From IMG/VR virus record IMGVR_UViG_3300022542_001157: a stretch of 42,619 bases of DNA; one strand, 5' to 3'. The notes below the pieces were generated by a model. It saw only the letters and a program-made list of their open reading frames with translations, ran no database searches and was not told where the DNA came from. Position 1 is the first letter of the stretch. Every line of letters begins with the position of its first letter. Made by a program: the position numbers and the translations under genes. Below, one piece after another: positions 586 to 40,425 of the stretch. The DNA is from a virus.

Positions 586-2352
586 TTATAGCATGGTCGC
601 CGCCGCCTTGTCAATCCCGATTTCAGCGATTAACTCTGCAACATAATCTGACATCGATTTTTTGTCTTTTATCGCTTGGCGGATCTGCTCTTCCACCGAA
701 TTCTCGATTAAAAGATCAATATAAAGCACCGAATTCTTCTGCCCGATCCGGTGGTTACGGTCCTCAGATTGGATGCGGTCGGTGAATTTGAAACTGTTCG
801 AAAAATAAATCACCAAGTCTGATTCATTTAAGGTCAAGCCCACTGAACCTGTCTGCAGGGTAGCCACAAAGAACCTGGTCCCATCATGGCGTTTGAACCA
901 TTTCATGTTATCTTGGCGTTGGTCCCCGGTCAAGCCCCCGTGGAATTCTGAAACGGTTTCCGGGCCGAAATTCTCTCGCAAAATGTCCGCTACCATCAGG
1001 TTTTCCCGCCGGTACTTGGTCCAAATGATGACTTTTTTCGAATGATCCAATTCTTCCAAAATCCGCAACATTTCCCGGATTTTGGGGTTTGATTTCGGGG
1101 CCATCAGCATCTCCACGTCCGGCGTTTTTTGTCCTTCAACCTTCGTCATAACAAACCCCGACGCGATCTGCTGTAGAAAATTTAAACTGACCAAAATATT
1201 GTCGGCCACGATTTCTATTGGGCCCCCATCCCGAACTTTGGATTTAATAAACGCTATCCTTTCACGGGCCATGGATTTGTAAATCTTGGACTGTTCCTTG
1301 GACATCGCAATCTTGACCGTTTCATAGACTTTATCAGGCAAATCCAGGACATCTTTTTTGAAGGATTGAAACACGAATTTTCCGACGCTCTCGGCCAACT
1401 CCTCAATGTTTTTATATCCGACTTCTTTCTGGTAACTTCCCGCCGAGGTTCGCATTTCCTCCAGCACGGCGTACTGATTGCGGAAAGCATACCAGGAGCC
1501 TATGCCAATGATGTCAGGATCAAGGAACTGAAACTGCGTATAAAGATCCAGGGGAGATTGCGTCAAAGGCGTCCCTGTCATGATGAGTTTCCTTACGGCA
1601 TAATTTCCCAACCAAACCACGTTTTCGGACCGGTTCGCATTATGGGTCTTGATAAAGTGGGATTCATCCACGACTACCAGCACTTTGCCACCAGACACAA
1701 AATCCTCGGCCATGGCGAATGCTTTCCCTTTCTTGTAGCCCTGACTGACTGACTCCACACCCAGGATGGCCACAGGCAATCGCCCCTTTTTGGATGCAGA
1801 CCTCGTGTCCTCCATGAATTTAGCGAAATCGTTCTGCATTTTCTTCGTGGAAGTCGCAATAATCTGGGTCCTGTATTCCAATGGCCCATGGATTTTGATT
1901 TCGTCCACCCAGTTTCCACGAATGGAATAGGGGCAAATGACCAAAACGCGGTCTATCGTGCTTTCCATGTACAACACCGACGCCCAATCAATCCCAATTT
2001 TGGTTTTGCCTGTCCCCATTTCCATAAAAAGGGCGGCGGCGTCTTTGCCGTAAACAAAATCAAGCCCCTCTTTCTGGTGCATCATGGGTGTAGTTTTTGG
2101 TTTATACCAAATCGGAAATTTCAGATTTGAAACCCTGATTTTCCGTGTGTTGTCAATAGCAATTTGGGCCAATGGCATGATCTTTGCATCTTGAACCGTG
2201 CGCACAATCGCCTCAACATTCTTTCGGTATGGCGGAACCACCCATTTCGAGGTCCTTTTATTGAACCTTTTGTTTGGAATTGCATGGAGCTTGGCATTGT
2301 CCCGAAATGAACACTCCAATTGAAAATTTTTCCCATCAAAGTCTATAATCAT
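586..2352 (-). CDS. SNF2/Rad54-family (superfamily 2) helicase
   Basis: 588 aa. Walker A MGTGKTK, motif II VVDESH, motif VI-type DRNHRIGQ. The start abuts the stop of the upstream gene (TGAATG). Confidence 0.9.
   Translation of the reverse strand: MIIDFDGKNFQLECSFRDNAKLHAIPNKRFNKRTSKWVVPPYRKNVEAIVRTVQDAKIMPLAQIAIDNTRKIRVSNLKFPIWYKPKTTPMMHQKEGLDFVYGKDAAALFMEMGTGKTKIGIDWASVLYMESTIDRVLVICPYSIRGNWVDEIKIHGPLEYRTQIIATSTKKMQNDFAKFMEDTRSASKKGRLPVAILGVESVSQGYKKGKAFAMAEDFVSGGKVLVVVDESHFIKTHNANRSENVVWLGNYAVRKLIMTGTPLTQSPLDLYTQFQFLDPDIIGIGSWYAFRNQYAVLEEMRTSAGSYQKEVGYKNIEELAESVGKFVFQSFKKDVLDLPDKVYETVKIAMSKEQSKIYKSMARERIAFIKSKVRDGGPIEIVADNILVSLNFLQQIASGFVMTKVEGQKTPDVEMLMAPKSNPKIREMLRILEELDHSKKVIIWTKYRRENLMVADILRENFGPETVSEFHGGLTGDQRQDNMKWFKRHDGTRFFVATLQTGSVGLTLNESDLVIYFSNSFKFTDRIQSEDRNHRIGQKNSVLYIDLLIENSVEEQIRQAIKDKKSMSDYVAELIAEIGIDKAAATML
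2173..2188 (+). promoter_or_regulatory. sigma54-type -24/-12 motif, antisense inside the SNF2 gene
   Basis: TGGCATGATCTTTGCA matches TGGCAY-N5-TTGCA exactly. Confidence 0.4.
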
Positions 2353-3138
2353 TCAGGACCCCCACTCTAAAGCGAGTTTGATCTTTTCTTCTCCTAATTT
2401 ATCAAGTATTATCTTTGGGACGCTTACAGACATATTTAATCCATTTTTTGCGACAATCTGTATCTCAATGTATCCAATTCTAATATGGGATTTTTCCAAC
2501 CCATCCAACGCAAAAACAAGCTCCTTCCTTGCGTTCTTTCCTGCGGCTGCTTTTTCTGCCTGTTCTTTTGTTGTGAATGATAAACCTTTCGCTCTTATGT
2601 AATAGACTAGATCAAGATTAGCAGTTGACATTAAGATAGGTTTATAATGATTATTAATATGCATTGTAATAGTCCATTCCCCAGTAGGATCATACCCAAT
2701 AGGACACGTTTTTACAGCCTCTTTTTTATTCATGTCCTCAGCGTGGTGGTCGGCAATGTGTTTCCACTTCCAACTTTGGGGATAAGCCGCCAATATACTT
2801 GGCGTTGGGTTCACCAACCTCTTGGGCTCGTGTTTGTCGGTATAATGATTTTTGACCACAACCCAATGGATTTTGGGGGGTTTTTCAATGTCGGAAGCTT
2901 TAAATGTCGTAGGTTCGTCTACTACATTTAAAGTGGGGAGAACACCATGTGTTCTTGAACCCCCATACAATTGCAAAAACTTTTCTTTTTTAATTACTTT
3001 CTCTTTCAATTTTTTGTTTTCCTGCTCCAAAGCCCAGCGCCCCGCAACCACTTTGGATGCCACTTTAGCCACAATAGCATCTTGGTAACTCTGCAGGTCC
3101 TTTCTAAGCTCGTCTGTGTATTCAAATTCTTCGTCCAT
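2353..3138 (-). CDS. Hypothetical protein, 261 aa
   Basis: Long ORF. ATG preceded by the conserved AAAGGAGATTAGAA cassette. Confidence 0.75.
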   Translation of the reverse strand: MDEEFEYTDELRKDLQSYQDAIVAKVASKVVAGRWALEQENKKLKEKVIKKEKFLQLYGGSRTHGVLPTLNVVDEPTTFKASDIEKPPKIHWVVVKNHYTDKHEPKRLVNPTPSILAAYPQSWKWKHIADHHAEDMNKKEAVKTCPIGYDPTGEWTITMHINNHYKPILMSTANLDLVYYIRAKGLSFTTKEQAEKAAAGKNARKELVFALDGLEKSHIRIGYIEIQIVAKNGLNMSVSVPKIILDKLGEEKIKLALEWGS

Positions 3139-3150
3139 TTCTAATCTCCT

Positions 3151-3345
3151 TTAAAATCCACCCAATAATTCTTGCCGAATATAAACCATTGAATTGATCA
3201 ATACCAAAATCATGGCCGCGCCAACTAACGCTTTGTTATGATACCAACGTCTTTTGTAAATACTGCCTTTTCGGTCTGTGACATTCAACATAATAACAAA
3301 AACACTGCAAAATTGGACATACGCCCAAAACTCCTCTATCACCAT
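3151..3345 (-). CDS. Small membrane protein, 64 aa, two predicted TM helices
   Basis: Hydrophobic stretches WAYVQFCSVFVIMLNV and ALVGAAMILVLINSMVYI. Perfect AAAGGAGATTAGAAATG cassette. Confidence 0.65.
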   Translation of the reverse strand: MVIEEFWAYVQFCSVFVIMLNVTDRKGSIYKRRWYHNKALVGAAMILVLINSMVYIRQELLGGF

Positions 3346-3380
3346 TTCTAATCTCCTTTAAAATTGGCCTATGCAAGTAC

Positions 3381-3446
3381 TTATTGGGCGATCACTCCGT
3401 AAAGGGCCACCAAAGCAAAAACTACTAAAACAATGTCAATTTCCAT
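3381..3446 (-). CDS. Micro-ORF, 21-aa hydrophobic peptide MEIDIVLVVFALVALYGVIAQ (below ORF-track cutoff)
   Basis: ATG at 3446 preceded by AAAGGAGATTAGAG, which is embedded in the last codons of the methyltransferase gene. TAA at 3383..3381. Single TM-like segment. Confidence 0.45.
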   Translation of the reverse strand: MEIDIVLVVFALVALYGVIAQ

Positions 3447-4362
3447 CTCTAATCTCCTTTAATCTGTTAAAGATATGCACGATAACGTCAACAGTCCAGC
3501 CGTTCCCGATCGATTTGTACCGTTGTGTGTTACTTACACCAAAAGTATAATCGTCCGGCAGTGTTTGGAGCCGTTCACACTCCAAAGGCGTGAGTTTTCT
3601 CCATTTGTTTGGTGGCAATGTCATTTTTGGTTCATGATGGCCGCCTGTCCCAGCTCTAACTGTGGGGCATTTCCCAAGTTGGCCATATGTCCTCTTATTT
3701 AAATCATAAGTTTTAATATCGGCCTCGCCCGTTAGTGCGCAACCACTAAACACCAATTGGCGTCTGTGCTTCTCAAAGTAACTTTTCAAGTTCCCACCTT
3801 TGAAGTAATTCGCGTCAAGGCAGAACGTCTTGTCTCTATCTACCGCCCCGTCTTCAATAATATCCTTCAACACCAAACCCTTGTCTTTCGGTTGTTCAAT
3901 TCCTTCAATATTGGTCCAATAAAGCCTGTTTCTATACTGGGCACTCACCAAAGCAGAATTGATTTCAATAGATTCAACCCCCAAAAAATCATCAAGTTCT
4001 TTCCTGATCTCCTTTTTCATCCTGACATTTTCAATCAAGAAATATTTCGGTTTTAGATCATGAATTAATTCAATCGCTTTATAAAACAACTGTGATCTCG
4101 GGTCATCCCAATTCAAACGCTTCCCGGCCATAGAAAACCCCTGGCATGGTGGGCCGCCGATAATCATATCAATCTTTGGTAGATTCCATTCTGGGCAATT
4201 CTCGATATCTCCAAGCCTGACAATTTCAGGGTAGTTCTTTTCTGATGTCTGAATCGCCCATTTGTCGATTTCAGAAGCATAGTAATTATCAACTTTAATT
4301 CCTGCGCGCTTAAGTGCCACCAACCCGCAACTTATTCCATCGAACAAACTCAATACGTTCAT
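3436..4362 (-). CDS. DNA (cytosine-5)-methyltransferase
   Basis: 308 aa. Motif I LSLFDGISCG, motif IV GGPPCQGFS, motif VI FLIENV, motif X-like QRYKSIGNGWTV. Confidence 0.92.
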   Translation of the reverse strand: MNVLSLFDGISCGLVALKRAGIKVDNYYASEIDKWAIQTSEKNYPEIVRLGDIENCPEWNLPKIDMIIGGPPCQGFSMAGKRLNWDDPRSQLFYKAIELIHDLKPKYFLIENVRMKKEIRKELDDFLGVESIEINSALVSAQYRNRLYWTNIEGIEQPKDKGLVLKDIIEDGAVDRDKTFCLDANYFKGGNLKSYFEKHRRQLVFSGCALTGEADIKTYDLNKRTYGQLGKCPTVRAGTGGHHEPKMTLPPNKWRKLTPLECERLQTLPDDYTFGVSNTQRYKSIGNGWTVDVIVHIFNRLKEIRDGN

Positions 4363-4376
4363 ATTTCTAATCTCCT

Positions 4377-5933
4377 TTAATAATCGATTTCAGGGTCCTT
4401 GGGCGCAATACCCAGGTCTTCCCCAAATTGTGACCCCTCGATTGGGACTGTCCAAATTTGGATCACGGTGTTGGAACCAATACGGCACCTTTTGTGTCCG
4501 ATCTTCATTTCCTTCAACGCTAACCAAAGATTGGCCCCTTTCATTTCCTCTGATCGGTTTTTTTTCAGGAAGGTCACAAAATCTGCACCCCGGAAGTAAA
4601 TGAAACGCCCCTCGGATTCCGCTTGAACCGTCGGCATTCCAAGCAATAATTGTTGCCGGTCGTCGGTCTTGTCCCCTTTAGAATTCAAATCTGCTTTTTT
4701 CAGAAACTCCACCAACCTGGCCCGGATGACCCCCGCGATACTGGCCTCCTCGGGTGCCGAAATTTTCTCGGCCTTCAACATCAATGCATTGAGTTGCACT
4801 TGCCAGCGCTCGTTTTTCATGGCCGGGATCAGCATCGTCATTTTCTCGGCTACGGCTTCCCGCACCCGCCTGAAATCCATGACCTCGGCGGTCCCCAAGT
4901 AAATTTTGGAATCGTTGACCAATAGCACCCATTTTACAGGGTCGGTTTCGATTTTCTGCAAGCCTTTGAATTCGGGCATTACACCCAAGTCCAATTCAGA
5001 TTTCTCGTCTGGTGTAATACCGTGTTTCTTGGTGATGCAGAGTGCCGAATTACAGAGGGCCTTACAGGGTTCCTCCTGGCATTTATACTTATAATCGCGG
5101 CGGCCAGCCGAGCTTACCACTTTCTTGGCTTCTACGAAATCCAGGGGCGAATCGAAAATTCTGGCGTTAAGATCATATGCCTTGTCCCTCCAGGTTTCCG
5201 GGTGGACTTTTTTCAAATAAATGGTGATGTTGTACAGGGCCAAATTCCGAAGTCCACCCGGCACCCCATTTGCAATCATTTTACTGATACAAGGGGGGGA
5301 CTCGTCGTGGCTATCATCTATAATCTCAATCAACCGGGGTCCTGCAATCCTTTTAGCCGCTACCAGATCCAAGAAATGGCCCAAAAGACTTATCTTCTTG
5401 CCACCGTCCACCCCATAACGGAGTGGTTCGTCTCCTTGCCAATCGAAAAATGGAAGGTTGATAAAATTCCCATTGGCCATTTTACCTTCGTGATCTTTAG
5501 CCAAAACCGCCTGTTTCGGGAAAATTTCAGCCCTAGGGAAACCCAAAGCCCCGGCCCATTTGGTCAATGCCTTGCGAATCAAACTGGCTTTAACGGGTTC
5601 GATCCCAAAGAAATAAACGTGGGCACCACCCGATTTCGATCGACAGACCATCAAAGGCAGATCCAATTCCCGCACCTTGAAATCCAATTCGAAAAGATCG
5701 ATATCGGGCTCGCCGCCCCCATGGGCGTCAATATCAATCGCCCCAAACCAACAAAAACCATCGTCCATGATAGGAACCGCCGCGACTCCAGCAGTCCCTA
5801 TAAAATGGTTTTCGAAGTCTTTCTTGGTAACGGGTTCTAACACCGTATAAGTGTTGTTTTCAACTTTGTTTGGAATAAAGCGGCCAAAATTCCGGTCGTT
5901 CCCCTTGAATAATGCCATGAACCGCTCTATCAT
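4377..5933 (-). CDS. Archaeo-eukaryotic-primase-superfamily primase-polymerase (PrimPol-like)
   Basis: AIDIDAHGG (DxD) and SKSGGAHVYFF (sGGxH) motifs. Preferred start is ATG 5933 behind GGAGGAAAGCAA. The ORF track extends to a TTG at 5972 with poor RBS spacing. Confidence 0.8.
   Translation of the reverse strand: MIERFMALFKGNDRNFGRFIPNKVENNTYTVLEPVTKKDFENHFIGTAGVAAVPIMDDGFCWFGAIDIDAHGGGEPDIDLFELDFKVRELDLPLMVCRSKSGGAHVYFFGIEPVKASLIRKALTKWAGALGFPRAEIFPKQAVLAKDHEGKMANGNFINLPFFDWQGDEPLRYGVDGGKKISLLGHFLDLVAAKRIAGPRLIEIIDDSHDESPPCISKMIANGVPGGLRNLALYNITIYLKKVHPETWRDKAYDLNARIFDSPLDFVEAKKVVSSAGRRDYKYKCQEEPCKALCNSALCITKKHGITPDEKSELDLGVMPEFKGLQKIETDPVKWVLLVNDSKIYLGTAEVMDFRRVREAVAEKMTMLIPAMKNERWQVQLNALMLKAEKISAPEEASIAGVIRARLVEFLKKADLNSKGDKTDDRQQLLLGMPTVQAESEGRFIYFRGADFVTFLKKNRSEEMKGANLWLALKEMKIGHKRCRIGSNTVIQIWTVPIEGSQFGEDLGIAPKDPEIDY
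5259..5274 (+). promoter_or_regulatory. Weaker sigma54-type motif, antisense inside the primase-polymerase gene
   Basis: CGGCACCCCATTTGCA. GG-N10-GC and TTGCA are kept; the first T is replaced by C. Confidence 0.25.
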
Positions 5934-6369: not shown

Positions 6370-6397
6370 TTTCTCCTCATCTCTTTGTTTTTAGAAA

Positions 6398-6421
6398 CCC
6401 CCGAATTTTAAGTGACGGGGG
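6398..6421 (-). terminator. GC hairpin followed by UUUCU on the minus strand (terminator/attenuator-like) in the leftward leader
   Basis: CCCCCG (6398..6403) pairs with CGGGGG (6416..6421), 12-nt loop. The minus strand reads CCCCCG-N12-CGGGGGTTTCT, immediately upstream of the 76-aa ORF RBS. Confidence 0.35.
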
Positions 6422-6581
6422 CTCCCACTGTCTGCGCCATAAAAGACACAGGAATTACGAACCTGACATCAACATACTCAACCTATCATTTTACTAATAA
6501 GCAACTGAGTGTTGCGATTCGAAAAGCTTTATCAGATCATGCCTGGGGTCAGTCTGTCAAGCCCGATTTAGTTGGTTATTG

Positions 6582-6597
6582 TGGCACGAGATTTGCA
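6582..6597 (+). promoter_or_regulatory. sigma54-type promoter motif P1 (rightward)
   Basis: TGGCACGAGATTTGCA is an exact match to TGGCACG-N4-TTGCA. Confidence 0.55.
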
Positions 6598-6605
6598 TAC
6601 GGGCA

Positions 6606-6621
6606 AGCAAGAAGCGTGCCA
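6606..6621 (-). promoter_or_regulatory. sigma54-type promoter motif (leftward), face to face with P1
   Basis: The minus strand reads TGGCACGCTTCTTGCT (TTGCW allowed). It is the only minus-strand copy found. Confidence 0.4.
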
Positions 6622-6663
6622 TTAGGTAAAATATTGCTTTGAAACCCCGAGTAAAATTGGTAC

Positions 6664-6693
6664 TTGACAGACTCAAGCCTTCTGTGGTACAAT
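6664..6693 (+). promoter_or_regulatory. sigma70-type promoter (rightward) with extended -10
   Basis: TTGACA, 18-nt spacer, TGgTACAAT. Confidence 0.5.
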
Positions 6694-6773
6694 AAAAAAT
6701 AAGGCCAAAACATGGACCAGCATCCTGGGATGGATGGCTCGGAAAAAGCGTCGTGGGACGGCCTTCCCGGTTT

Positions 6774-6789
6774 TGGCACGAAAATTGCA
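6774..6789 (+). promoter_or_regulatory. sigma54-type promoter motif P2 (rightward)
   Basis: TGGCACGAAAATTGCA, exact consensus. Confidence 0.55.
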
Positions 6790-6829
6790 ACGCGTGGACG
6801 GGGGTTGAAGGGCTGGTAATCTAGAACCG

Positions 6830-6845
6830 TGGCACGATCTTTGCA
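6830..6845 (+). promoter_or_regulatory. sigma54-type promoter motif P3 (rightward), about 235 nt upstream of terS
   Basis: TGGCACGATCTTTGCA, exact consensus. Confidence 0.55.
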
Positions 6846-6970
6846 TGTGGGTTCTCTTTTTTTGTAAGGCTTACGGAGCTGTCAAGCTTGACAATATTAA
6901 GTTAAGAACACTACGAGTATCACACATATTCACAACACAACAAGAACGGGATTCTAGATGTATGAATTCC

Positions 6971-6992
6971 TATCACTACGGTATCACTACGG
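6971..6992 (+). repeat. Tandem direct repeat 2 x TATCACTACGG in the late leader
   Basis: Direct reading. A third partial copy (CACTACG...TATCAC) lies at about 6910..6925. Confidence 0.85.
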
Positions 6993-7079
6993 GTAACACA
7001 GAACAACCTGCGAAGGTCTTACGGGACTTTCCTTCTTAACTGTTCTTTGGGCTTTACAAAAAAAGGAAGGCGGAGTGAA

Positions 7080-11354: not shown

Positions 11355-12170
11355 ATGAGTATCAGACGCGACAAATTTGGAACCGCTATTTTAGATTTGC
11401 CATTCAATATGTCCTTGGGTGAAATTCCTGGGCTGTCTAGGTCATACAAATTTGGAAAAGTTTCGGGACTTGATACTGTTCAACGAACCATTTGGACTGC
11501 GGGGTTTGAGTATAACCCACCGCCGGGGCCAACTGCAATGTCTTTTGCTTCCACTAGTCCGAATGACACCTCTGGCGGTAGTGGCGTAAATTATATAAAA
11601 GTAAACTATGTCGGATCTGGCTTTAATGAATTTACGGAGGTGCACTGCCTTAATGGCCAAACACCAGTTTCTCTGGCACATCCAGTGCACACTATCAACC
11701 GGGCGAAAGTATTGGCGGATGATATCGATGCCAAAAATGCTGGTCCGATATGGGCTGGGGCGGGTAGTTTCTCTGCGGGGGTCCCATCAAGCGCATATAC
11801 CCATATTGAATCCGGGGTCGGACAAACATACCAAGCGTTTTACACACTTCCCAACAATCAGCATATGCTGATTTATGACATGATATTGACCGCCAATGAG
11901 GGGAAAGAGGGTTCCATAGAAATGTTTGCGAGGGAAAACGCGGAGGTATTTTCAGGCTTCCCTAATGCGAGGAATACATTTCAGGCCAAAAATCATTATG
12001 ATATTTTTCAAACAACATTGCCGATTCAACGGAAAATTCCGTTGTGTTTTGGTCCGAAAACTGAGATCATATTTAAGGGGCGTGGCAAAGCGACGTTGAC
12101 TGATTTGTCTGTGGAAGGAACTTTTGTTTTGGTCAACTCAACTTATTTACATGGTTTAACAGGGCTATAA
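11355..12170 (+). CDS. Hypothetical virion-module protein, 271 aa
   Basis: ORF tightly packed between the portal and protease/scaffold genes. Confidence 0.7.
   Translation: MSIRRDKFGTAILDLPFNMSLGEIPGLSRSYKFGKVSGLDTVQRTIWTAGFEYNPPPGPTAMSFASTSPNDTSGGSGVNYIKVNYVGSGFNEFTEVHCLNGQTPVSLAHPVHTINRAKVLADDIDAKNAGPIWAGAGSFSAGVPSSAYTHIESGVGQTYQAFYTLPNNQHMLIYDMILTANEGKEGSIEMFARENAEVFSGFPNARNTFQAKNHYDIFQTTLPIQRKIPLCFGPKTEIIFKGRGKATLTDLSVEGTFVLVNSTYLHGLTGL
11674..11689 (+). promoter_or_regulatory. Near-consensus sigma54-type motif (one mismatch), sense, intragenic
   Basis: TGGCACATCCAGTGCA. GG-N10-GC is kept; first T of the -12 element (TTGCA) is G. Confidence 0.15.
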
Positions 12171-15886: not shown

Positions 15887-18774
15887 AAATTATCGTATAT
15901 GTCCCAGGCATGGCCTTTGATGGGAACACTTTGAAAGCAGGTAAAAGTCTCGGGGGCTCTGAGACTATGGGACTTATTGTGTCCCAAGAATTGGCAAAGC
16001 GTGGGCATCGTGTAATTTGTTTTTGCAACACAAACGGACCGTCGTTTACTGACAACGTGGAATATTTACCGATCGGCCCAGCAGATAATAACACCCCCTT
16101 TGGGGCCAATTTCGAACGATACGCGGCAGAGATCCCACATGATGTTTTACTGGCCCAAAGAGCGGCGGGGGTTTTCCATAAAAAGTTTAATTCCAAATTG
16201 AATTATTTTTGGACTCATGATCTTGCATTAAAACGCCACGCCGGGGCAATGGCAAGTATGCTTTGGAACACAGATCGAATTTTGGGGGTGTCAGAATGGC
16301 ACAAAAAACAAGTGTCCGAGATCTACGACTTGAACGATGGTTTCATTTCAGTTTTACGAAACGGCATAAATCTTGCAGATTTCAGTCCAGAGGCCGGTCG
16401 CTTGAAATTTAATTCAAAGACTTTGTTGTATACCTCCAGACCGGAACGGGGACTCGAAAATCTCGTGAAGCCCGGCGGAATCATGGAACAGTTGTATAAA
16501 CTGGACCCCGAAATCCAGTTGGTGGTGGCTGGGTACGACAATACCACCGAACAAATGGCCCAATTTTACAATTATCTGTGGGGAAGGTGTGAAGAACTCC
16601 CAAACGTAAAGAATTATGGCCCCCTTGGGAAAAAACAGCTGTACGAATTAATGGGGAAAGCGGCGTTGCATGTGTACCCCACCGAATTTGAGGAAACTAG
16701 TTGTATTACCATGATGGAAGAACAAGCCAGCGGCACCCCAGTGGTCATTACAAATGTTGGGGCACTCCCTGAAACTCTAGCCGGGGGTGGTATGTGGGAT
16801 GCCGATGTCGAGAATTTCGCTGGCGCAATTGAAGGGTTGTTGTCGAATTTCGAAACATGGTACAAAAGACATGAATTGGCCCTGAAAAAAGCCAAAAATT
16901 ATTGTATTGAAGCCGCAGTGGACGACCTTGAAGGGCTTATCCTAGACGATTTTGTAAGACTGTCTAGGAACGTTAACGCGGTGGCGGCTGGGTTGATCCG
17001 AAATTCGGACTTGGTTGCGGCAGAGAAGTTGACTGGGGTTCCTCCAGACGTCGATGCCCCTACCTTTTCTCAATCCACCAAAGAATCCGAGCGTTTTTAT
17101 GAAAACATTGCGGAATACAACATTGACATCGGGAACAAACATTCCCTGGGTAAATACGACAGAATCTTGTCAATGCCGAGGTTACAGCCTGTGATTGACC
17201 AGTTGGCCGACCTTCCAGACGGGGCCAAGGTGTTGGATTACGGTTGTTGTGTGGGGCATGTCACAACCGCCTTAGCTGACAGGTTTCCAAATCTGCAGTT
17301 TGTTGGAGTCGATATTTCGAAATTGCAAATCGACATCGGGAACAAATTTATTGACGCTAACGGATTGACCAACGTCAAATTGATGAACAGTCCAGATGTC
17401 AACCACCCGAAAATTGACAACGATTTTGATGCAGTTGTTGCTCTGGAAATCTTGGAACACATTCATGATTTTGGCGGTTTTCTGGCTGGGCTGTTGAAAC
17501 ACCTAAAATTGGGTGCGCCGGTTATCATATCCACTCCAGCGGGGCCTGTGGAAGCATTCCGGGGTGAAGAGGACCACCCACTCGAACATTTACACCACTT
17601 TGAGGAACAGGATATATTGGACATCATCGGGGACCAAGATGGGTTTAATGTTGTCTATATCAACGATTTTGATTCGAAGACAGGTGATAAACTCGGAAAT
17701 TTTGTGTGGTGGTGGAAACGAAGCCAGAAGAAACTTGGAAAAATTGACTATAACAAAAAACTGATTTTCCAAAACCCGATTCAAACGGTTTCCTGTTGTA
17801 TGGTTGTTTCCGGCAATACCGGGTCACTGAAAAGGACATTGGATTCTGTCTCTTTCGCCTCAGAATTTATTATCGGAGTTGACGGGGCCGAGGATTCCGA
17901 AGCGTTCCGAATTGCTAAACAATACGGGGCAGATGTGTTTTGTTTGACTGGAAGTCCACGAGAAATCGGATTTGATGAAGCCAGGAATGAAACTATTGAA
18001 AAGGCGGGGTGCGATTGGATTTTGTGGATTGATGACGATGAAGTGTTTCAGTGGCCAGAAAGGGTGTTGAAATATTTTAGAAACAACCAGTTTGACTCTT
18101 ACAGTATCGCGCAACACCATTTTAGCGCCGAACCTGCAGGGCTTTTAAAAACTGATTTGCCCGCCAGAATTTTTAGAAATCACAAAGGGATTAAATTTTA
18201 CGGCGTGGTCCATGAACACCCGGAAGTCGGAGTCAATGAGGGGCCGGGTAAAACTTTTGTGATCCCTGCCAATGAAGTGGCTATTTGTCATAATGGGTAT
18301 GATACCGAAATCACACGTCGGGAGCGCTTTCAACGAAATTTCCCCCTGATGGAACGGGAAATCAAAAAGCACCCAGATCGTTTGTTGTCAAAGTTTTTGT
18401 GGATTCGGGATTTGGCCCACTTGAACAAATTTGAATATGAACGGTTTGGAAGAATTACGCCAGAAATTAAGGCCAGGGCACAAGAAGCAATCAAAATTTG
18501 GCGGGGTTTGCTGGAGGATGCGCCAATTCGGATTGTTTCGGACTCCATACCATATGTTTCGGAGGCCGTGGATATCCTCACCGAAGGAGGCGGTTACCTG
18601 TTTAATTTCTGCTTGGATATGTCCTACCGGGGATTTGGGGATTTGGTGGACGGGAAAAGCAACGGAAACATCATCACGGGGAAATTGGAAACCAAAGAGG
18701 ACCTTCTTTTATTGATGAATAAATTCGTTTCAGAAAAAACAAAACCTTTTGAAGAAAACGCAAAGTATTTATAG
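15883..18774 (+). CDS. Three-domain enzyme: GT4-like glycosyltransferase, SAM-dependent methyltransferase, GT2-like glycosyltransferase
   Basis: GGSETMGL...KRGHRV and PTEFEETSCITMMEEQASGTPVV (GT-B). VLDYGCCVGH and VVALEILEHI (class I MTase motifs). CCMVVSGNTGSLKRTLDSV...WILWIDDDEV (GT-A DxD). Start ATG 15883 overlaps the upstream stop (ATGA). Confidence 0.8.
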   Translation: MKIIVYVPGMAFDGNTLKAGKSLGGSETMGLIVSQELAKRGHRVICFCNTNGPSFTDNVEYLPIGPADNNTPFGANFERYAAEIPHDVLLAQRAAGVFHKKFNSKLNYFWTHDLALKRHAGAMASMLWNTDRILGVSEWHKKQVSEIYDLNDGFISVLRNGINLADFSPEAGRLKFNSKTLLYTSRPERGLENLVKPGGIMEQLYKLDPEIQLVVAGYDNTTEQMAQFYNYLWGRCEELPNVKNYGPLGKKQLYELMGKAALHVYPTEFEETSCITMMEEQASGTPVVITNVGALPETLAGGGMWDADVENFAGAIEGLLSNFETWYKRHELALKKAKNYCIEAAVDDLEGLILDDFVRLSRNVNAVAAGLIRNSDLVAAEKLTGVPPDVDAPTFSQSTKESERFYENIAEYNIDIGNKHSLGKYDRILSMPRLQPVIDQLADLPDGAKVLDYGCCVGHVTTALADRFPNLQFVGVDISKLQIDIGNKFIDANGLTNVKLMNSPDVNHPKIDNDFDAVVALEILEHIHDFGGFLAGLLKHLKLGAPVIISTPAGPVEAFRGEEDHPLEHLHHFEEQDILDIIGDQDGFNVVYINDFDSKTGDKLGNFVWWWKRSQKKLGKIDYNKKLIFQNPIQTVSCCMVVSGNTGSLKRTLDSVSFASEFIIGVDGAEDSEAFRIAKQYGADVFCLTGSPREIGFDEARNETIEKAGCDWILWIDDDEVFQWPERVLKYFRNNQFDSYSIAQHHFSAEPAGLLKTDLPARIFRNHKGIKFYGVVHEHPEVGVNEGPGKTFVIPANEVAICHNGYDTEITRRERFQRNFPLMEREIKKHPDRLLSKFLWIRDLAHLNKFEYERFGRITPEIKARAQEAIKIWRGLLEDAPIRIVSDSIPYVSEAVDILTEGGGYLFNFCLDMSYRGFGDLVDGKSNGNIITGKLETKEDLLLLMNKFVSEKTKPFEENAKYL
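16362..16377 (+). promoter_or_regulatory. Weaker sigma54-type motif, sense, inside the glycosyltransferase gene
   Basis: CGGCATAAATCTTGCA. Confidence 0.2.
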
Positions 18775-32281: not shown

Positions 32282-32372
32282 CCGTTTTCTGATCCCAATT
32301 TACCACACCCTGTCAATTCTGTCAATATATCGAATCAACGAAATTTATTCAGAATTGACAAAGATCAATTTC
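32282..32372 (-). repeat. Early promoter/operator cassette, copy 2
   Basis: See copy 1. Confidence 0.9.
32297..32325 (-). promoter_or_regulatory. Consensus sigma70 early promoter PE2 (leftward)
   Basis: The minus strand reads TTGACA, 17 nt, TGgTAAATT. Confidence 0.75.
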
Positions 32373-32390: not shown

Positions 32391-32406
32391 TGGCACGAAA
32401 TTTGCA
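32391..32406 (+). promoter_or_regulatory. sigma54-type motif pointing rightward (antisense) into the 3' end of the replication/Z operon
   Basis: TGGCACGAAATTTGCA, exact consensus. Ends 1 nt before the stop codon of the 32407..32883 gene. Preceded by the palindrome TTCCGTTAACGGAA (32370..32383). Confidence 0.5.
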
Positions 32407-32883
32407 TTAGAATCCAGACAGAGCATTGAAAAATTCCCTATTGTTTTTCCGGAAATGGTCCATTGACGCGTACCGCAATCTGCACAACCTAAACCACTCC
32501 TCTTTGGGCGATTTTCCCAATGCAAACATTTTCATTACAGCCGGACTAATCAACAGAATGTCCTCATCAATTTGCACCAAAAACCACGATTGCCCTTGGA
32601 ATTTTTGTACACCTAACGCGAAACGGACTTGTCCCCCAACCCGCTCGGGGTGCGGGACTTTTACCGGGGACTCTGGATTCTTGGGCCATTTCGGAAGTGC
32701 TTTAACCTCGATCCAACCTGAAATGCCGCCCGGCATCCCCGTAGAATCTTGGGGGCCGACCGTATACGCCCAATCCGAAACAAAATTTTCCGTTCTGGTT
32801 TCGATCTCGGTTAATTTCCAAAGCCCGCGCAAGGCAATTTTGATATTGTTTTTGAAGGTTTGCTCCCTTGTTATTCGGCTCAT
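32407..32883 (-). CDS. Putative PD-(D/E)xK-type nuclease (VRR-NUC/resolvase-like)
   Basis: 158 aa with a GWIEVK-type E-x-K motif. ATGA-coupled to datZ. Confidence 0.45.
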   Translation of the reverse strand: MSRITREQTFKNNIKIALRGLWKLTEIETRTENFVSDWAYTVGPQDSTGMPGGISGWIEVKALPKWPKNPESPVKVPHPERVGGQVRFALGVQKFQGQSWFLVQIDEDILLISPAVMKMFALGKSPKEEWFRLCRLRYASMDHFRKNNREFFNALSGF

Positions 32884-34005: not shown

Positions 34006-35045
34006 ATCTCCACCACGGCGGTTTGGTTTGGCCCCAAACCAAGGAAAGCCAATTTTCCACCTTGTTCATCCGCAATTCTGCTCACAGTTTCAATCATAGC
34101 GGTCCGCTCATTGATGTTAGGCAAATAGTTTACGAAATTTAGGAACACCTCGTCCACACCAGACATTTGGATGGCCTCGGTAATTTGTTGCTCGGAGAAA
34201 GTAAAAATCCGACGGGGCAATTTGGTTACGGTGGTCAATTCCGGTTTGATCCCGATTTGTGCCCACTCAATTTCGTGTTGGTCTTCATAACATGGTCCAG
34301 AATATCCAATTTGCGTTCCGTTTTCGTCATGCCGATTCGCCACCCGGATTGGGAAAGTTCGCGCTGAACCCACCACTTTGGCCAACATTTTGATAGGGAC
34401 CACGGTGTCCGACAGAATTTGTGCTGTTGTGCATTCACGAGAAGTCACATAAGGATAAAGGCCACTGTTGATCCCCAATGAATAACCCTGTGCGCCTTCG
34501 ATTTGAATTTTCTCGGCCTGGTTTAACATGTCCATGTATTGGGCGTGTGTCACCACCGAAAAATAACCAGAGGCCCCACCTTTTGGTAACCAATCGCGAA
34601 TAATCGTTTTTTTGTCCGGGTTGCGGCGGATTTTGTCAATCAAAGCCGCTCCGCAACCTTTTTTAGTGGAACCAATTTTAGTCATTGGACCGGCTTCAAT
34701 GTCAATATGCTCCTGTTGGATCACACAGGCGTTTTCGTGAACAAACACGGGAGGCACTTTTCCTAAAATGTCGCGGTTCTGGTCGATTTCTCGCATTAAA
34801 TTATCGACATTCAGTTGACTTCCCGGCCCGATTAAAGCCACTTCGAAATTAGGGCTTACAATGCCATTGGCCAGCATGGTGTGGATAAATTTTCTTCCAG
34901 TTTCATCAATATAGGTGTGTCCGGCGTTGGCCGACCAAGCCGTAACCAATGTATCAGGTTTATCGCGCTTGGCTAAATACCCCGCAATCAAACCCTTTCC
35001 AGTGCTTCCAAACTGCAAATCGCAGATCAAAGTAGCTTTCTCCAT
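34002..35045 (-). CDS. purZ: PurZ-like short adenylosuccinate-synthetase homologue (N6-succino-2-amino-2'-deoxyadenylate synthase)
   Basis: 347 aa versus about 430 for PurA. DLQFGSTGKG aligns with the PurA GDEGKGK P-loop with Asp to Ser. NAGHT, IGSTKKGCG, EGAQGYSLGINSGLYPYVTS are conserved. Adjacent to MazG and HD genes. Confidence 0.8.
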   Translation of the reverse strand: MEKATLICDLQFGSTGKGLIAGYLAKRDKPDTLVTAWSANAGHTYIDETGRKFIHTMLANGIVSPNFEVALIGPGSQLNVDNLMREIDQNRDILGKVPPVFVHENACVIQQEHIDIEAGPMTKIGSTKKGCGAALIDKIRRNPDKKTIIRDWLPKGGASGYFSVVTHAQYMDMLNQAEKIQIEGAQGYSLGINSGLYPYVTSRECTTAQILSDTVVPIKMLAKVVGSARTFPIRVANRHDENGTQIGYSGPCYEDQHEIEWAQIGIKPELTTVTKLPRRIFTFSEQQITEAIQMSGVDEVFLNFVNYLPNINERTAMIETVSRIADEQGGKLAFLGLGPNQTAVVEI

Positions 35046-36349: not shown

Positions 36350-36595
36350 TTAAAATGGGATATCATCAAGTTCGTCGTCCCCAACGGGGGCGGACGCGGG
36401 TTTCGGTTGGGGTGGCACGTCCTTTGCAGTTAGGGCAATCGACATGAACTTTCCCGTCCTCCCGTCCTTCAACCACGCTGACATCCAATATTCGACCCCT
36501 TCAACATTTAGAGTCCCAGTATACAGCGGGTGTGTTTCTTTCGTTTTCCGATCGTTTTTGAATAATGCCCCGGAATTTGTGTTATCGTACGCCAT
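36350..36595 (-). CDS. Small SSB-like protein, 81 aa, with a bacterial-SSB-type acidic tail (DDELDDIPF)
   Basis: ATG 36595 behind AAGGAGAGAGAATAAA. C-terminal DDIPF tip. The ORF-track 5' extension to 36820 would overlap the polymerase gene by 56 nt. Confidence 0.55.
   Translation of the reverse strand: MAYDNTNSGALFKNDRKTKETHPLYTGTLNVEGVEYWMSAWLKDGRTGKFMSIALTAKDVPPQPKPASAPVGDDELDDIPF
36413..36428 (+). promoter_or_regulatory. sigma54-type motif, antisense inside the SSB-like gene
   Basis: TGGCACGTCCTTTGCA, exact consensus. Confidence 0.4.
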
Positions 36596-36764
36596 TTTAT
36601 TCTCTCTCCTTTTGGGGTTGGTTTTCCTTGTACCGTTTTGCGCATTCTTTATGTAAAATTCGTGGAAGATCGTCTCCAGACCATTTGGGTATGGGAAGAA
36701 TTGTGTGTTGGTTTCCCCATAACAAACCACCGCAGGACCAACAAAAAATTTACTCGTGGTTTTT

Positions 36765-38609
36765 TCATGTTGCTTTCTCCGCTTTGGTGGCTTCCCACCA
36801 ATTTTTAGACGGTTTCCCAAAATCGATCCGTATTGGAACCTTGAGTAAATCTTTCTTGTCTTCTATCAGTCGCCTGATTTCTTTCAAGTGCTTGATGGAC
36901 TCCGCGTTATCCGGGAGCGATAAACTATATTCATCGTGGATATTTAAAAGAAGTCGGGCGGCGGGATATTCGGAAGCTAAATATTCACAAGTGAGCGCGA
37001 TATTGAGTTTGTTCAGATCCGCCGATGAACCTTGGTAAATCAGGCCAGACGCCTTTCTCGCCCCATACCCTTTGGGGAACCTGATATGGCGGCCCAAAAT
37101 GGTTCTGATATACCCCCGGCGCTCGGCCACATTTTGGGCCTTGCGGGCCATTTCTCGGATTCCTGGAACCATTTTGTGGTAGCTCTCCACCATAGCTAAG
37201 GCCTCAGGACCAGCCTTTTTGAAAACAATCGTTTCTCCAAATTTAGTGGTAAATTTGTCTTCTGTCCATGGGAGTCCCACCGCGTCTGCCATAGCCCCAG
37301 ACCCCATATTGAAAACCATTCCAAGATTCAGTTGCTTGGCGTTTGGCCCACCATTAGCCGGTTTATTCCTTGGAAGCCCGGTCAAATCAGCAACCTTGGT
37401 GTGGAAGTCCAAATTGGGGTTGCTGCGGTATTCTTCAATGATCTTAGGGTTGTTGACATAGTGTGCAAACACCCTATACTCATGTTGATCCAAATCCCCG
37501 TATGCCCAAGCTTGCCCTTCATCTGGGATAAAAATCGGGCGGACCAAAGCGGCGATTTCTTTGTCGCGGGCAGGGATTTGTTGGAGTGCCGGTTCTACAT
37601 AGGACAATCGCCCGGTGCCGGTACCACCCTCATCACCTTTGGTCTGGTTGATCGTGGGAAAAACTTTTCCTTGATATTCGTGCCCCAGGATATGTCCCTT
37701 AATAAAGGTGTCTCGGGTTTTCATGTATTTCCGTACTTTCAAGATCACGGCGGCGGCTGGGTGTTTCATTTTCTCCAGACTTTCTTTGGCCAGGGACGGT
37801 GCCCCTTTCTTGGTCGTCCCAATGACCGTGCCATCGATAGTTTCCCACAACCCGTCTTTCCTCTTCTTGGGCTCGAACAATTTTTTAATGCTTCCGGACG
37901 GATTCGGATTGACCGGGAATCCAGCGATATCATCCAAATATTTCCGAAGCAAATCAACCTCTTTGGTCAGGGCTTCTATTTGAATTTCAGCGGCGGCGGG
38001 GTCCACACGAATTCCTCGCCTTTCCATTTCCACGATGTGTGGAAACAGTCGCCGTTCAAAATTGTATATTTGCCCCAACCCCTGTTTGGTTATTTCTTTC
38101 TCTTGCCATTTCCATAGCTCCATGGCCACATTGGTGTCCTGTTTGGCATACCGGGCCATCAATTCAACTGGTGCTTTGTGAAAATTTTTCACTTGCGCGT
38201 TTCGAGTGGCCATGCCACCAAAAATTTTGGCCAACTCCACGTAAATGTCTGAATCTTTCCGGATGCCCAAATATTTTTTGGCCAGGGCATCAAGATTGTA
38301 TTCGTGCAAATGCTCATTGATCAACGCCCCCCGAATCATGGTACAATCGCAAATTGCGGGGTCCAAGGCCACCCCTGCTCCACGAAGCATATGGATGTCA
38401 AATTTGATATTGTGGTTCACCACACGATTGATATTGGTTTTAAGCTGGTCCCGCAACCAATCCAGGGATTTTGGGGTTTCGCGAATATCATAATAAGCTG
38501 ATCCTTGGGAATCCGAAACCGAGAAACCAAACAATTTATCCCGGTTCCAATCCACGCCGGTGGATTCGATATCAATGGCACAAAATTTGTTGATGTTTCT
38601 AAATTCCAT
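36765..38609 (-). CDS. dpoZ: Family A DNA polymerase with 3'-5' exonuclease domain (DpoZ-type by genomic context)
   Basis: Exo I AIDIESTG, Exo II NHNIKFDIHML, Exo III YAKQDT. Pol motif A DLDQHEYRV, motif B K-x3-NLGMVFNMG, motif C NIHDEY. ATG 38609 (or TTG 38612). Confidence 0.9.
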   Translation of the reverse strand: MEFRNINKFCAIDIESTGVDWNRDKLFGFSVSDSQGSAYYDIRETPKSLDWLRDQLKTNINRVVNHNIKFDIHMLRGAGVALDPAICDCTMIRGALINEHLHEYNLDALAKKYLGIRKDSDIYVELAKIFGGMATRNAQVKNFHKAPVELMARYAKQDTNVAMELWKWQEKEITKQGLGQIYNFERRLFPHIVEMERRGIRVDPAAAEIQIEALTKEVDLLRKYLDDIAGFPVNPNPSGSIKKLFEPKKRKDGLWETIDGTVIGTTKKGAPSLAKESLEKMKHPAAAVILKVRKYMKTRDTFIKGHILGHEYQGKVFPTINQTKGDEGGTGTGRLSYVEPALQQIPARDKEIAALVRPIFIPDEGQAWAYGDLDQHEYRVFAHYVNNPKIIEEYRSNPNLDFHTKVADLTGLPRNKPANGGPNAKQLNLGMVFNMGSGAMADAVGLPWTEDKFTTKFGETIVFKKAGPEALAMVESYHKMVPGIREMARKAQNVAERRGYIRTILGRHIRFPKGYGARKASGLIYQGSSADLNKLNIALTCEYLASEYPAARLLLNIHDEYSLSLPDNAESIKHLKEIRRLIEDKKDLLKVPIRIDFGKPSKNWWEATKAEKAT

Positions 38610-40065
38610 CAAAAACCCCCACCAATACTGGGTTGTCCACTGTCACAATATCCAGTTGGTGTTTGGCTCGGGTCACACCAACATAAAACACCCGGTATTC
38701 AGAATCGGGGTCCTTGTGGAAATTTTCACTAGTTTTCTGCCCCATGCCATCCAAAAGGATTATTCGGTCATCTTCATCACCCTTAAAGCCATGGATCGTG
38801 GAAAGTTGGATTGTAGGAATGCCACGAATGCTCCCATACTTGGCCTCAATTCTGGACAAATAATTTAAAATTCTGGTGCTTCCAGTAAACGCTTTCCCCC
38901 AATGGTCATATATGTCAAAATCCCCATTCTTAAGCGCCCGGAAAGCACCGGGGTGCATGAACCTTTTCATTTTATTGATTTCCGGATCGGTTAATCTAAA
39001 ATTTCCGAACATTTTGAAATCATCAAAGGCTGTGACCCAATTTTTAATCGCTTGGGCCATGGGAGATTCATTGACTCCAGGTTTCCCGTTCAGAACCCGG
39101 TACGGGACCGCTAGCGCAATCAAATGGTCTTCGATGTCCCCACGCAATGAATGGTTGCGATACAGGATTGAACATTTTTCGCCATGTTCAATTTCTAGTT
39201 GCCCAATGTCCCCAAACATGCGGACGGTGCCTTCCTCGGGCCGGGGCTTGTACTCCTTGTCAATCCGTACTTTCACCCTTCGAATAACAGACTCAGCGGC
39301 TTTGTGTACCTTCGCGGGTACACGGTAGCTCTGCCCGAGGATTTCCTGTTCTGCTTGGTGTAATTCTTTCCATTTGGAAATTCCTTGTGGGTCAGCCCCA
39401 CCCCAAGAGAAAATTGCTTGGTCATCGTCACCACTGACGATGACAGTACGGATTTCAGTGGCCCAATAGTTGATCAGTTTCCACTGAAGAGGGGAAAGGT
39501 CCTGGGCTTCGTCCACAAAAAGGATATCCAAATCTGGAACCCCAGCCCCTACAGCCATTTCCAACATGTCATTGAAGTCAATGACTCCATAACCTTTTTT
39601 GAAGCTCTCCAGGCTGTCAATAAAATACTTGAAGACGGAATAACTTCCCGGCCTATGGGATTCCATATAAACCATTTTGGCATCTTCGGCCAGTATAGCT
39701 TTGGAATACTGGTAAATCGCTAACAATTCATCGCCCAATTCAATCTGGTCATTGTCCTCAACGTTCCTGTTGGTGATTTCAATTCCGGTTTTTTTGGACA
39801 AATCGCGGTAAAATTCGTAATCCGCGACCTGAGACCGGTTGATCCCAGCTTGTTTAAAGGCTATCGAATGGATGGTGCCGACAAATTCCGACCCAATACC
39901 GGCTCTTTTAGCCAGAACCTTGGCGGCCACTTTGGTGAATGTGACCAACCCAATTCTCTTGGGGTCGGTCCCCGATGATACATACTCTTGCACCAAAGAG
40001 ATAATTTTCGTGGTCTTTCCGGTTCCAGGAGGGCCTACAATAGTCCTTCTAAAAGGATTGGTCAC
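38599..40065 (-). CDS. UvrD/PcrA-like superfamily 1 helicase
   Basis: GPPGTGKTT, LFVDEAQDL, SGDDDQAIFSWGGA, TIHGFKGDEDD, YVGVTRAK. GTG start behind AGAGGGGG. Confidence 0.9.
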   Translation of the reverse strand: MTNPFRRTIVGPPGTGKTTKIISLVQEYVSSGTDPKRIGLVTFTKVAAKVLAKRAGIGSEFVGTIHSIAFKQAGINRSQVADYEFYRDLSKKTGIEITNRNVEDNDQIELGDELLAIYQYSKAILAEDAKMVYMESHRPGSYSVFKYFIDSLESFKKGYGVIDFNDMLEMAVGAGVPDLDILFVDEAQDLSPLQWKLINYWATEIRTVIVSGDDDQAIFSWGGADPQGISKWKELHQAEQEILGQSYRVPAKVHKAAESVIRRVKVRIDKEYKPRPEEGTVRMFGDIGQLEIEHGEKCSILYRNHSLRGDIEDHLIALAVPYRVLNGKPGVNESPMAQAIKNWVTAFDDFKMFGNFRLTDPEINKMKRFMHPGAFRALKNGDFDIYDHWGKAFTGSTRILNYLSRIEAKYGSIRGIPTIQLSTIHGFKGDEDDRIILLDGMGQKTSENFHKDPDSEYRVFYVGVTRAKHQLDIVTVDNPVLVGVFDGI

Positions 40066-40363
40066 TTAGGGCCCCCTCTTCATACTCAGAAACGAGAATT
40101 TCGTTCAAAAGCGATATTATTTCGTCAATAACATCGAAATATTCCCCTCTGGTGATGGTTTTTAGTACCCCATCCACTAATTCGAAATCAGCGCTCAAAC
40201 TGGTGGATTTTCCTTCCTTCCATACAGCGAATCTTGGGTTTGAATAATGGGACAGTAGAGCTATGATATAACCTGAACCGTTACTATTAAAAAGGGTGTG
40301 CCTCAAGTCCCCGTATTCCTTGTCTTTCTGGGTAAACCATTTCAATTTGTCAATCACTTTCAT
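40049..40363 (-). CDS. Hypothetical protein, 104 aa
   Basis: ATG 40363 behind AAACAGGAGATTAGAA (cassette variant). Confidence 0.65.
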   Translation of the reverse strand: MKVIDKLKWFTQKDKEYGDLRHTLFNSNGSGYIIALLSHYSNPRFAVWKEGKSTSLSADFELVDGVLKTITRGEYFDVIDEIISLLNEILVSEYEEGALSDQSF

Positions 40364-40409
40364 TTCTAATCTCCTGTTTCCTTTAAAACTTAGGGCCATG
40401 CTGTTAAAT

Positions 40410-40425
40410 TGGCATGGCCCTTGCA
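40410..40425 (+). promoter_or_regulatory. sigma54-type motif, intergenic, antisense orientation
   Basis: TGGCATGGCCCTTGCA. Confidence 0.4.

Follow-up and report, generated by a model that had tools for sequence, protein, structure and literature searches.

Why a phage should carry very strong promoter boxes that point against its own replication genes and have no gene behind them is the question raised by the IMG/VR virus record IMGVR_UViG_3300022542_001157, a stretch of 42,619 nucleotides (nt) referred to below as the window. The boxes are of the sigma-54 type (TGGCAY-N5-TTGCA) and occur both upstream of the late genes and scattered over the oppositely oriented replication arm. The 42.6-kb window looks like a whole phage genome closed into a circle, with a 15-nt tandem repeat across both ends, and belongs to a phage with 2-aminoadenine (Z) in place of adenine. 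Its late genes lie on the plus strand from 7047 to 30186 (small terminase subunit, split large terminase, portal, protease, capsid, two glycosyltransferases and tape measure), all remaining genes are on the minus strand, and both arms diverge from a 670-nt control region, 6380-7047. The GC skew flips at about 6.5 and 30 kb.

The original prediction, made from the letters of the window, counted seven exact plus-strand copies of the pattern, and all the positions it gave proved correct. An exhaustive scan of both strands with permutation found seven on the plus strand, at 2173, 6582, 6774, 6830, 32391, 36413 and 40410, and none on the minus strand, against 0.06 expected from dinucleotide shuffles, and none of 100 shuffles reached seven. 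Because a pattern derived from the window would judge its own sites, scores were taken from an independent matrix built on 42 intergenic sense sigma-54 sites of E. coli determined by chromatin immunoprecipitation and sequencing (PMC4591121, Table 1). The reference sites, scored leave-one-out, gave a median of 15.0 bits and an upper quartile of 16.9 bits. Eight sites of the window, at 17.7-21.1 bits, lie above this upper quartile:

2173..2188, plus strand: sigma-54 box TGGCATGATCTTTGCA, 18.8 bits, antisense in the SNF2 gene over codons 55-60 (AKIMP)
6582..6845, plus strand: late promoter cluster with three boxes at 6582, 6774 and 6830 (19.8, 21.1 and 20.1 bits), 5' of the gene for the small terminase subunit (7047)
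6606..6621, minus strand: the sole minus-strand box, TGGCACGCTTCTTGCT, 19.6 bits, facing box 6582 with the GC elements 12 nt apart
32391..32406, plus strand: sigma-54 box TGGCACGAAATTTGCA, 20.5 bits, abutting the stop codon of the minus-strand open reading frame (ORF) 32407..32883
36413..36428, plus strand: sigma-54 box TGGCACGTCCTTTGCA, 17.7 bits, antisense in the SSB-like gene (36353..36598) over the linker peptide AKDVP
40410..40425, plus strand: sigma-54 box TGGCATGGCCCTTGCA, 17.8 bits, intergenic, 3 nt past the stop codon of the minus-strand gene 40429..40713

In all eight the GG and GC doublets are exactly 10 nt apart within TGGCAC-N5-TTGCW, as is characteristic of sigma-54 sites. The three boxes of the late cluster were used as the reference set for the scattered copies. 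Box 6621..6606 had been reported as the one minus-strand copy; it is present, but it ends in TTGCT and is placed thereby outside the exact pattern and inside the usual TTGCW consensus. Below the eight there is a gap in score, followed by a tier of 12-15 bits (38576, 28711, 11674, 16362, 5259 and 22623 on the plus strand, and two sites on the minus strand); chance alone is expected to give about 3 matches of at least 12 bits per genome and fewer than 0.05 sites of at least 17 bits per arm. For the replication (early) arm, a second-order Markov model with the arm's own strand composition predicts 0.02 sites of at least 17 bits per strand, where 4 were seen on the plus strand and 0 on the minus strand, so that neither the enrichment nor the strand asymmetry is due to composition. 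Addition of the 12-15 bit sites brings these counts to 6 and 0. Resampling of synonymous codons with the proteins held fixed gave an expectation of 0.07 exact intragenic copies, compared with the 2 seen (2173 and 36413), and of 0.9 one-mismatch intragenic matches on the plus strand. The independent matrix scores and the enrichment over shuffles uphold the earlier assignment of the boxes as sigma-54-type and non-random.

When the copies were aligned on the motif, only the sigma-54 core was common to them, including a G after TGGCAY and a T before TTGCA, which are known sigma-54 preferences; no conservation was found in the 60 nt on each side. This bears on the possibility, also raised at first, that the motif is an orientation-dependent DNA signal not read by sigma-54, for instance a strand-specific nick site like those of T5 or phiKMV, a signal for packaging or replication, or an operator bound by a phage protein. 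We consider this very improbable. The copies do lie on one strand at regular spacing, and the pair 6582/6621, like near-palindromic pairs in other viral contigs, could represent dimer operators; however, the boxes carry the full bipartite consensus, including positions beyond the pattern first described, reach the top of the E. coli range, have nothing else in common around them, show no strand switch between the arms as Chi and KOPS signals do, and form a cluster exactly at the place expected for late promoters. A Chi/KOPS-like polar motif was rejected as a candidate, there being only 4-6 copies, on the same strand in both arms despite the flip in GC skew. The boxes are almost certainly sigma-54 sites, to judge from their letters, and almost certainly selected.

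The second part of this statement draws on comparison with related phages, for which eight replication-arm and five late-arm loci were available (13 loci from 12 phages, L133 and L134 being near-identical, with the same portal protein). The replication arm was found to be homologous and collinear with those of Acinetobacter phage SH-Ab 15497, Salmonella phage PMBT28 and six metagenomic loci, the collinear genes being those for PrimPol, SNF2, the Pam3 gp32-34-like proteins, UvrD, DpoZ, SSB, PurZ, MazZ and DatZ; DpoZ is 57-62% identical and the other proteins 37-56%, and for the SH-Ab 15497/PMBT28 group the identities span 37-61%. In all these relatives the genes run in one direction. The late arm has no similarity to their late genes and belongs to a different, uncultivated lineage, whose nearest members (portal 55-56% identical) are also unidirectional and whose capsid protein shares no more than 29% identity with that of any isolate. 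Because each arm has separate kin, the phage is, on this comparison, a chimera of two lineages, in which a replication arm like that of SH-Ab 15497 and an unrelated late arm meet head to head.

The 12 related phages, with their 13 loci, and the leading 50 kb of Pseudomonas phage YuA contained no sigma-54 box of at least 16 bits, and the homologous SNF2 and SSB genes of seven relatives are devoid of the box. The homologous arm of the relatives is thus collinear yet box-free; SH-Ab 15497 and PMBT28, Z-siphoviruses with all genes on one strand, have no sigma-54 boxes, whereas in the window the same arm is inverted relative to the late arm and carries them. As far as these genomes indicate, all eight boxes are gains specific to the window phage. 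Boxes 2173 and 36413 fall in protein segments that are variable among the homologues (AKIMP and AKDVP), and the two intergenic boxes, 32391 and 40410, abut genes unique to this phage. Lineage-specific gains in such tolerant positions point to selection on the DNA motif itself.

Gains of this kind might also be non-adaptive by-products, either copies of the late promoters made by gene conversion or recombination or sequences brought along with acquired genes, harmless for want of a nearby enhancer. The spacers resemble those of the late boxes (2173 and 6830 are one base apart, as are 32391 and 6774), and the unique genes beside both intergenic boxes would suit this explanation, which nevertheless appears very unlikely: the likeness ends at the 16-nt core and the flanks lack the homology that copying would leave, both intragenic boxes required specific amino-acid and codon changes in homologous genes, and the four boxes share one orientation and an even spacing.

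The gene contexts assigned to the boxes at first (SNF2, SSB-like, stop-abutting, intergenic, PrimPol and glycosyltransferase) were all found as described. The predicted start of box 2173 is at about 2199, some 150 nt from the SNF2 start codon (2352), and that of box 36413 is at about 36439, some 158 nt from the SSB start codon, sigma-54 transcripts usually beginning some 12 nt past the GC element. ORF 32407..32883 is the last gene of the Z-nucleotide/replication operon and box 32391 is directed back into this operon; it lies 4 nt from a palindromic hairpin and about 100 nt past a plus-strand terminator-like hairpin (32270-32284). The -24 half of box 40410 is the 3' arm of a 9-bp hairpin (GGGCCATGC / GCATGGCCC, 40391-40419). 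The minus-strand genes opposite the boxes have homologues, Pfam matches and coding-type codon statistics. Codon statistics of the antisense type and a lack of Pfam matches mark the plus-strand ORFs downstream of the boxes, so that any product starting at the boxes would be non-coding; hidden plus-strand genes behind the boxes were rejected on the same two lines of evidence. The boxes therefore stand opposite real genes with no gene of their own downstream, as cis-antisense promoters of phages do. The predicted RNAs contain more C than G (C/G 1.1-1.5). No conserved RNA structure was evident at the boxes, the folding z-scores being unremarkable, and no repeats or AT-rich unwinding element lie beside them.

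These properties bear on a further option of the original prediction, replication-priming transcripts, considered here as RNAs from the boxes that would start or stimulate DNA replication by forming R-loops or by activating an origin through transcription. In its favour, the boxes are located in the replication arm of a phage that encodes PrimPol and DpoZ, and other phages are known to have origins that depend on a promoter. RNA with more C than G is poorly suited to stable R-loops, however, and such are the predicted RNAs, which disfavours this option; four to five evenly spaced origins would be unusual, and the repeats or unwinding element of an origin are missing at the boxes. A role in priming is accordingly regarded as extremely unlikely. 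Transcription-driven genome entry was rejected on orientation logic.

The reading preferred here, with a probability of roughly 0.45, is that the scattered boxes are start sites of late, non-coding antisense transcription by the sigma-54 holoenzyme, which would lower the expression of the replication genes. It is the most economical one, because the consensus of the late cluster is shared and there is no gene to express, and late antisense or convergent transcription seems to be the best fit among the three options first put forward. We infer that the four scattered boxes bind host RNA polymerase carrying sigma-54, having arisen and been kept by selection in this lineage, and that the consensus common to them and the three late promoters would allow one signal to switch them on simultaneously. 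Each box would then start a non-coding plus-strand transcript against the minus-strand replication and Z-nucleotide genes, and the transcripts, or the act of transcription, would lower those genes late in infection by head-on transcriptional interference and by pairing with the mRNAs. The gene set for Z-DNA consists of the following:

32880-33491, minus strand: DatZ-like HD hydrolase
33475-34005, minus strand: MazZ-like pyrophosphohydrolase
34002-35045, minus strand: PurZ-like adenylosuccinate synthetase
36765-38612, minus strand: family A polymerase (DpoZ)

PrimPol, an SNF2 ATPase, a UvrD-type helicase and a C5 cytosine methylase are further encoded. The targets had been called early genes. 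The boxes are indeed directed against the minus-strand replication genes, but the term is imprecise, as sigma-70-like early promoters at 31.6 and 32.3 kb lie outside the stretch covered by antisense transcription. These promoters (TTGACA-17-TAAACT or TAAATT, with TG in front) belong to a repeat, listed here with a terminator-like structure near box 36413:

31590-31681 and 32281-32372, minus strand: two copies of a 92-nt direct repeat, 93% identical, each with a sigma-70-like early promoter
36784..36806, plus strand: terminator-like hairpin with a T5 run, about 365 nt downstream of box 36413

The start of the second repeat copy, 32281, overlaps the last 4 nt and the T-run of the hairpin 32270-32284. 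This hairpin and that at 31575-31595 would terminate plus-strand transcripts just before box 32391, and the hairpin at 36784..36806 could bound a discrete antisense RNA over the 5' end of the SSB gene. The candidate hairpins with a T-run on the plus strand of the arm include one at 33513-33530, and sites of this type are no commoner there than in shuffled sequence.

The arrangement of terminators allows another view, in which the boxes act as feeder promoters: on circular or concatemeric DNA their plus-strand transcripts would cross the control region and continue into the late operon, adding to late gene expression, and any antisense effect would be incidental. All the boxes do face the late operon around the circle, terminator-like hairpins are not enriched on their way, and box 32391 would restart transcription right after the terminators at 31.6 and 32.3 kb had stopped late read-through. 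The required transcripts would, however, be up to 17 kb long, untranslated and rich in C, and such RNAs are prime targets of Rho; moreover, three strong promoters are already placed directly upstream of the late genes, and the candidate sites at 36784-36806 and 33513-33530 stand in the path. Feeding of the late operon is thus judged rather improbable.

The original prediction had counted five of six scattered copies as antisense, and this stands for the four secure ones; the fifth, 5259, is indistinguishable from chance. The CGGCAY variants at 5259 and 16362, taken as real copies at first, did not hold up, since their scores are in the chance range. The weaker sites are as follows:

5259..5274, plus strand: weak variant CGGCACCCCATTTGCA, 12.3 bits, in PrimPol on the conserved peptide IANGVP, compatible with chance
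11674..11689, plus strand: weak variant TGGCACATCCAGTGCA, 14.0 bits, sense, in the late gene 11355..12170, borderline
16362..16377, plus strand: weak variant CGGCATAAATCTTGCA, 12.8 bits, sense, in a glycosyltransferase gene, compatible with chance
38576..38591, plus strand: possible weak box ATGGCACAAAATTTGTT, 14.8 bits, antisense over the first DpoZ codons, in the borderline chance range

Box 38576, which had not been noticed before, has a -12 element with GT, as in E. coli pspA and pspG, and is situated about midway between 36413 and 40410. The three intragenic copies are read in one common register, xxT-GCA-AAx-xxx-xTG-CCx; as can be read from the sequence, either alternative register would need a cysteine codon.

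The gaps between the four secure scattered boxes, and on to the first late promoter, are 4022, 3997, 4382 and 4409 nt. Four random points in the arm would be equally even with a probability of about 0.0002 (about 0.002 for the three internal gaps alone, about 0.025 with 5259 included), the test being post hoc and the omission of 5259 resting on the independent E. coli matrix. A periodicity extending into the late arm was unconvincing, the sites 11674, 16362, 22623 and 28711 being in the chance range. If the antisense RNAs are untranslated and C-rich, Rho would end them early, and because of this several starts about 4 kb apart would be needed to cover the arm; re-initiation offsetting Rho is, as a cause of the spacing, a rationalisation. 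It is tempting to go further and to imagine a genome-wide strand switch built on host sigma-54, in which a single late signal, acting with no enhancer close by, would set off seven near-perfect promoters of like orientation. Transcription in the late direction would then run around the entire circle or concatemer, and four promoters every 4.0-4.4 kb would silence the inverted arm. The signal might be a non-canonical phage activator or a host activator released by stress, and the ATP-driven opening by sigma-54 may permit strong late initiation on Z:T DNA that is hard to melt. So extended, the proposal is a doubtful one.

Sigma-54 promoters depend on an AAA+ enhancer-binding activator, whose sites are usually found 80-150 nt upstream, and here several observations weigh against antisense firing. 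Searches by Pfam, PHROG and motif revealed no gene for a bacterial enhancer-binding protein (bEBP), no GAFTGA motif and no RpoN-box protein; the AAA+ proteins of the phage are all helicases, and no phage sigma-54 is encoded. In the 260 nt upstream of the seven boxes, a k-mer search with mismatches gave no shared enhancer above random-position controls. NtrC- and LuxO-type consensus sites did not exceed chance-level matches, and the palindrome GCAAC-N5-GTTGC likewise gave chance-level matches only. The activator may be one of the host, or may act from solution. No host was found with the tail fibre in bacterial genomes or with the capsid protein in isolate phages, and host rpoN is deduced solely from relatives infecting Gammaproteobacteria, which as a group carry rpoN. 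Taken alone, the strand bias of the four secure boxes, 4/4 on the plus strand, amounts to 1/16 and is weak. Conservation of the boxes could be followed in no close relative, the nearest DpoZ being 62% and the nearest portal on a long contig 55% identical; a second contig from another sample, L004, is 100% identical to the window, and IMG/VR scans and a metagenome pattern scan yielded no diverged kin. The minus-strand box 6621..6606 may drive the same arm, in which case sense and antisense transcription would depend on one sigma factor. Finally, intragenic sigma-54 binding in E. coli produced no measurable change in gene expression (PMC4591121).

The same facts lend themselves to the explanation that sigma-54 holoenzyme is bound at the boxes and seldom or never fires, the boxes serving as a sink for scarce sigma-54, as a roadblock to minus-strand transcription or as an architectural mark. 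The missing activator gene and enhancer-like motif agree with this, the holoenzyme sits inactive on the promoters that it binds, with firing perhaps never occurring at many of the E. coli sites (PMC4591121), and the dense arrays of 6-12 boxes in other viral contigs bear more likeness to capture sites than to single promoters. On the other hand, a sink or roadblock needs neither a uniform orientation nor an even spacing of 4 kb, occupancy of intragenic sites in E. coli is without detectable effect on the overlapping gene, and the boxes are equal in strength to the late promoters, which must fire. Silent binding is therefore considered unlikely, and late antisense transcription is retained as the preferred reading.

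The control region itself merits description. Box 6621..6606 could drive the minus-strand arm, which starts at 6380. In the face-to-face pair 6582/6621 the predicted start of each box is inside the promoter of the other, and the pair could form a toggle between leftward transcription of the replication arm and rightward transcription of the late arm; it resembles the paired units of the box arrays in viral contigs. The sequence CTGTCAAG occurs three times and is confined to this region (6551-6561, 6663-6673 and 6879-6886). A perfect 11-nt inverted repeat around the face-to-face boxes includes two of the copies, of which one overlaps the -35 element of a strong sigma-70-like plus-strand promoter (6664-6693). 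An 11-nt tandem repeat, TATCACTACGG, is present twice at 6971-6992, just 5' of the small terminase gene. The two kinds of repeat are candidate operator and terminase-binding sites.

Antisense promoters and RNAs of phages are known from lambda (paQ/oop) and P22 (sar). The promoter P001 of LUZ19 is an antisense phage promoter proposed to block early transcription of circular DNA, and antisense RNAs occur in PAK_P3 (PMC10914365). In these four phages a promoter of a later class is directed against earlier genes, as is proposed for the window; theirs are single sites, read by a phage RNA polymerase or of the sigma-70 type, whereas the window has four to six sigma-54-type sites over 17 kb. Pseudomonas phage YuA (NC_010116; PMC10914365) is, like the window phage, a siphovirus with host sigma-54-type promoters in the structural gene region, but its three annotated -24/-12 promoters are all sense, its genome is unidirectional and it is no Z genome, in contrast to the antisense boxes of the window.

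Intragenic and antisense sigma-54 sites have been described in E. coli and Salmonella (Bonocora et al. 2015, PMC4591121; Samuels et al. 2013, PMC3844500). Like these, the window boxes are canonical -24/-12 elements that lie in genes or face away from their neighbours with no dedicated enhancer evident, and antisense or long-leader transcription has been proposed for both. The intragenic sites of E. coli are 68% sense and weaker than the intergenic ones, whereas the secure scattered boxes of the window are all antisense, score with the best promoters, are phage-borne and evenly spaced, and are absent from relatives; in lacking conservation at homologous positions they also differ from the conserved intragenic sites of the enterobacterial type. 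What is new is the combination of very strong sigma-54 boxes without a gene, all of them antisense and at even intervals, which a chimeric Z-genome phage carries and none of its relatives has.

Several other features of the window were noted. A C5 cytosine DNA methylase is encoded at 3436-4362 (minus strand) in this Z-genome phage and is not found in the related replication arms. The large terminase consists of two overlapping ORFs, 7463-8212 (N-terminal half) and 8176-9009 (C-terminal half), and its gene is apparently split also in the late-arm relatives (L006 and L133-L136): the halves match two stretches of L006 that lie about 380 nt from each other, and L133-L136 have a separate ORF for the C-terminal part (Terminase_6C) behind small ORFs, an upstream ORF of 243-271 amino acids being a candidate for the N-terminal half. 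The 15-nt tandem repeat is present in about 17 copies across the window junction (42500-42619 joined to 1-144); within ORF 42277-42612 (minus strand) it codes for a pentapeptide-repeat protein (Pfam PF00805) that might mimic DNA. The sequence ATTTCTAATCTCCTTTAA is present in seven near-identical copies (213-230, 3137-3154, 3344-3361, 3445-3462, 4363-4380, 40362-40379 and 42257-42274), which on the minus strand read as TTAAAGGAGATTAGAAAT followed by a start codon and constitute a common ribosome-binding cassette before seven replication-arm genes. No known RNAs or tRNAs were detected in the window, and Rfam gave no match.

Beyond the window, two TGGCAC-N5-TTGCA boxes 30-60 nt apart were matched in more than 119 viral contigs, nearly all unrelated to it. 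Many of these contain dense arrays of 6-12 sigma-54-like boxes with a period of about 21-34 nt, either on a single strand or as face-to-face near-palindromic pairs (for example, in IMG/VR loci L089:1830-2068, L012:5936-6146 and L040:3792-3955, and also in L017, L075 and L113). We know of no description of such arrays. The 141-kb viral contig L028 has three tandem clusters of sigma-54-like boxes (736-860, 2592-2657 and 4495-4617) with GAGTTACGTAAAG before each box; they are on the minus strand in successive gaps, about 1.9 kb apart, between plus-strand ORFs without PHROG matches, and are possibly also directed against their neighbours.

To our knowledge, sigma-54 promoters have rarely been considered in phage biology, and antisense control by them has been only hinted at in bacteria. 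To judge by the viral contigs scanned, clusters of sigma-54-type boxes appear to be common among uncultivated phages. In the window, eight very strong boxes are found in a phage without close relatives, and half of them have no gene to express. If these boxes fire, nature would here offer a clear-cut example of shut-off by antisense transcription from a tightly gated class of promoter; and if this is true, how DNA with 2-aminoadenine in place of every A is recognised and opened by the sigma-54 holoenzyme would become a question in its own right.

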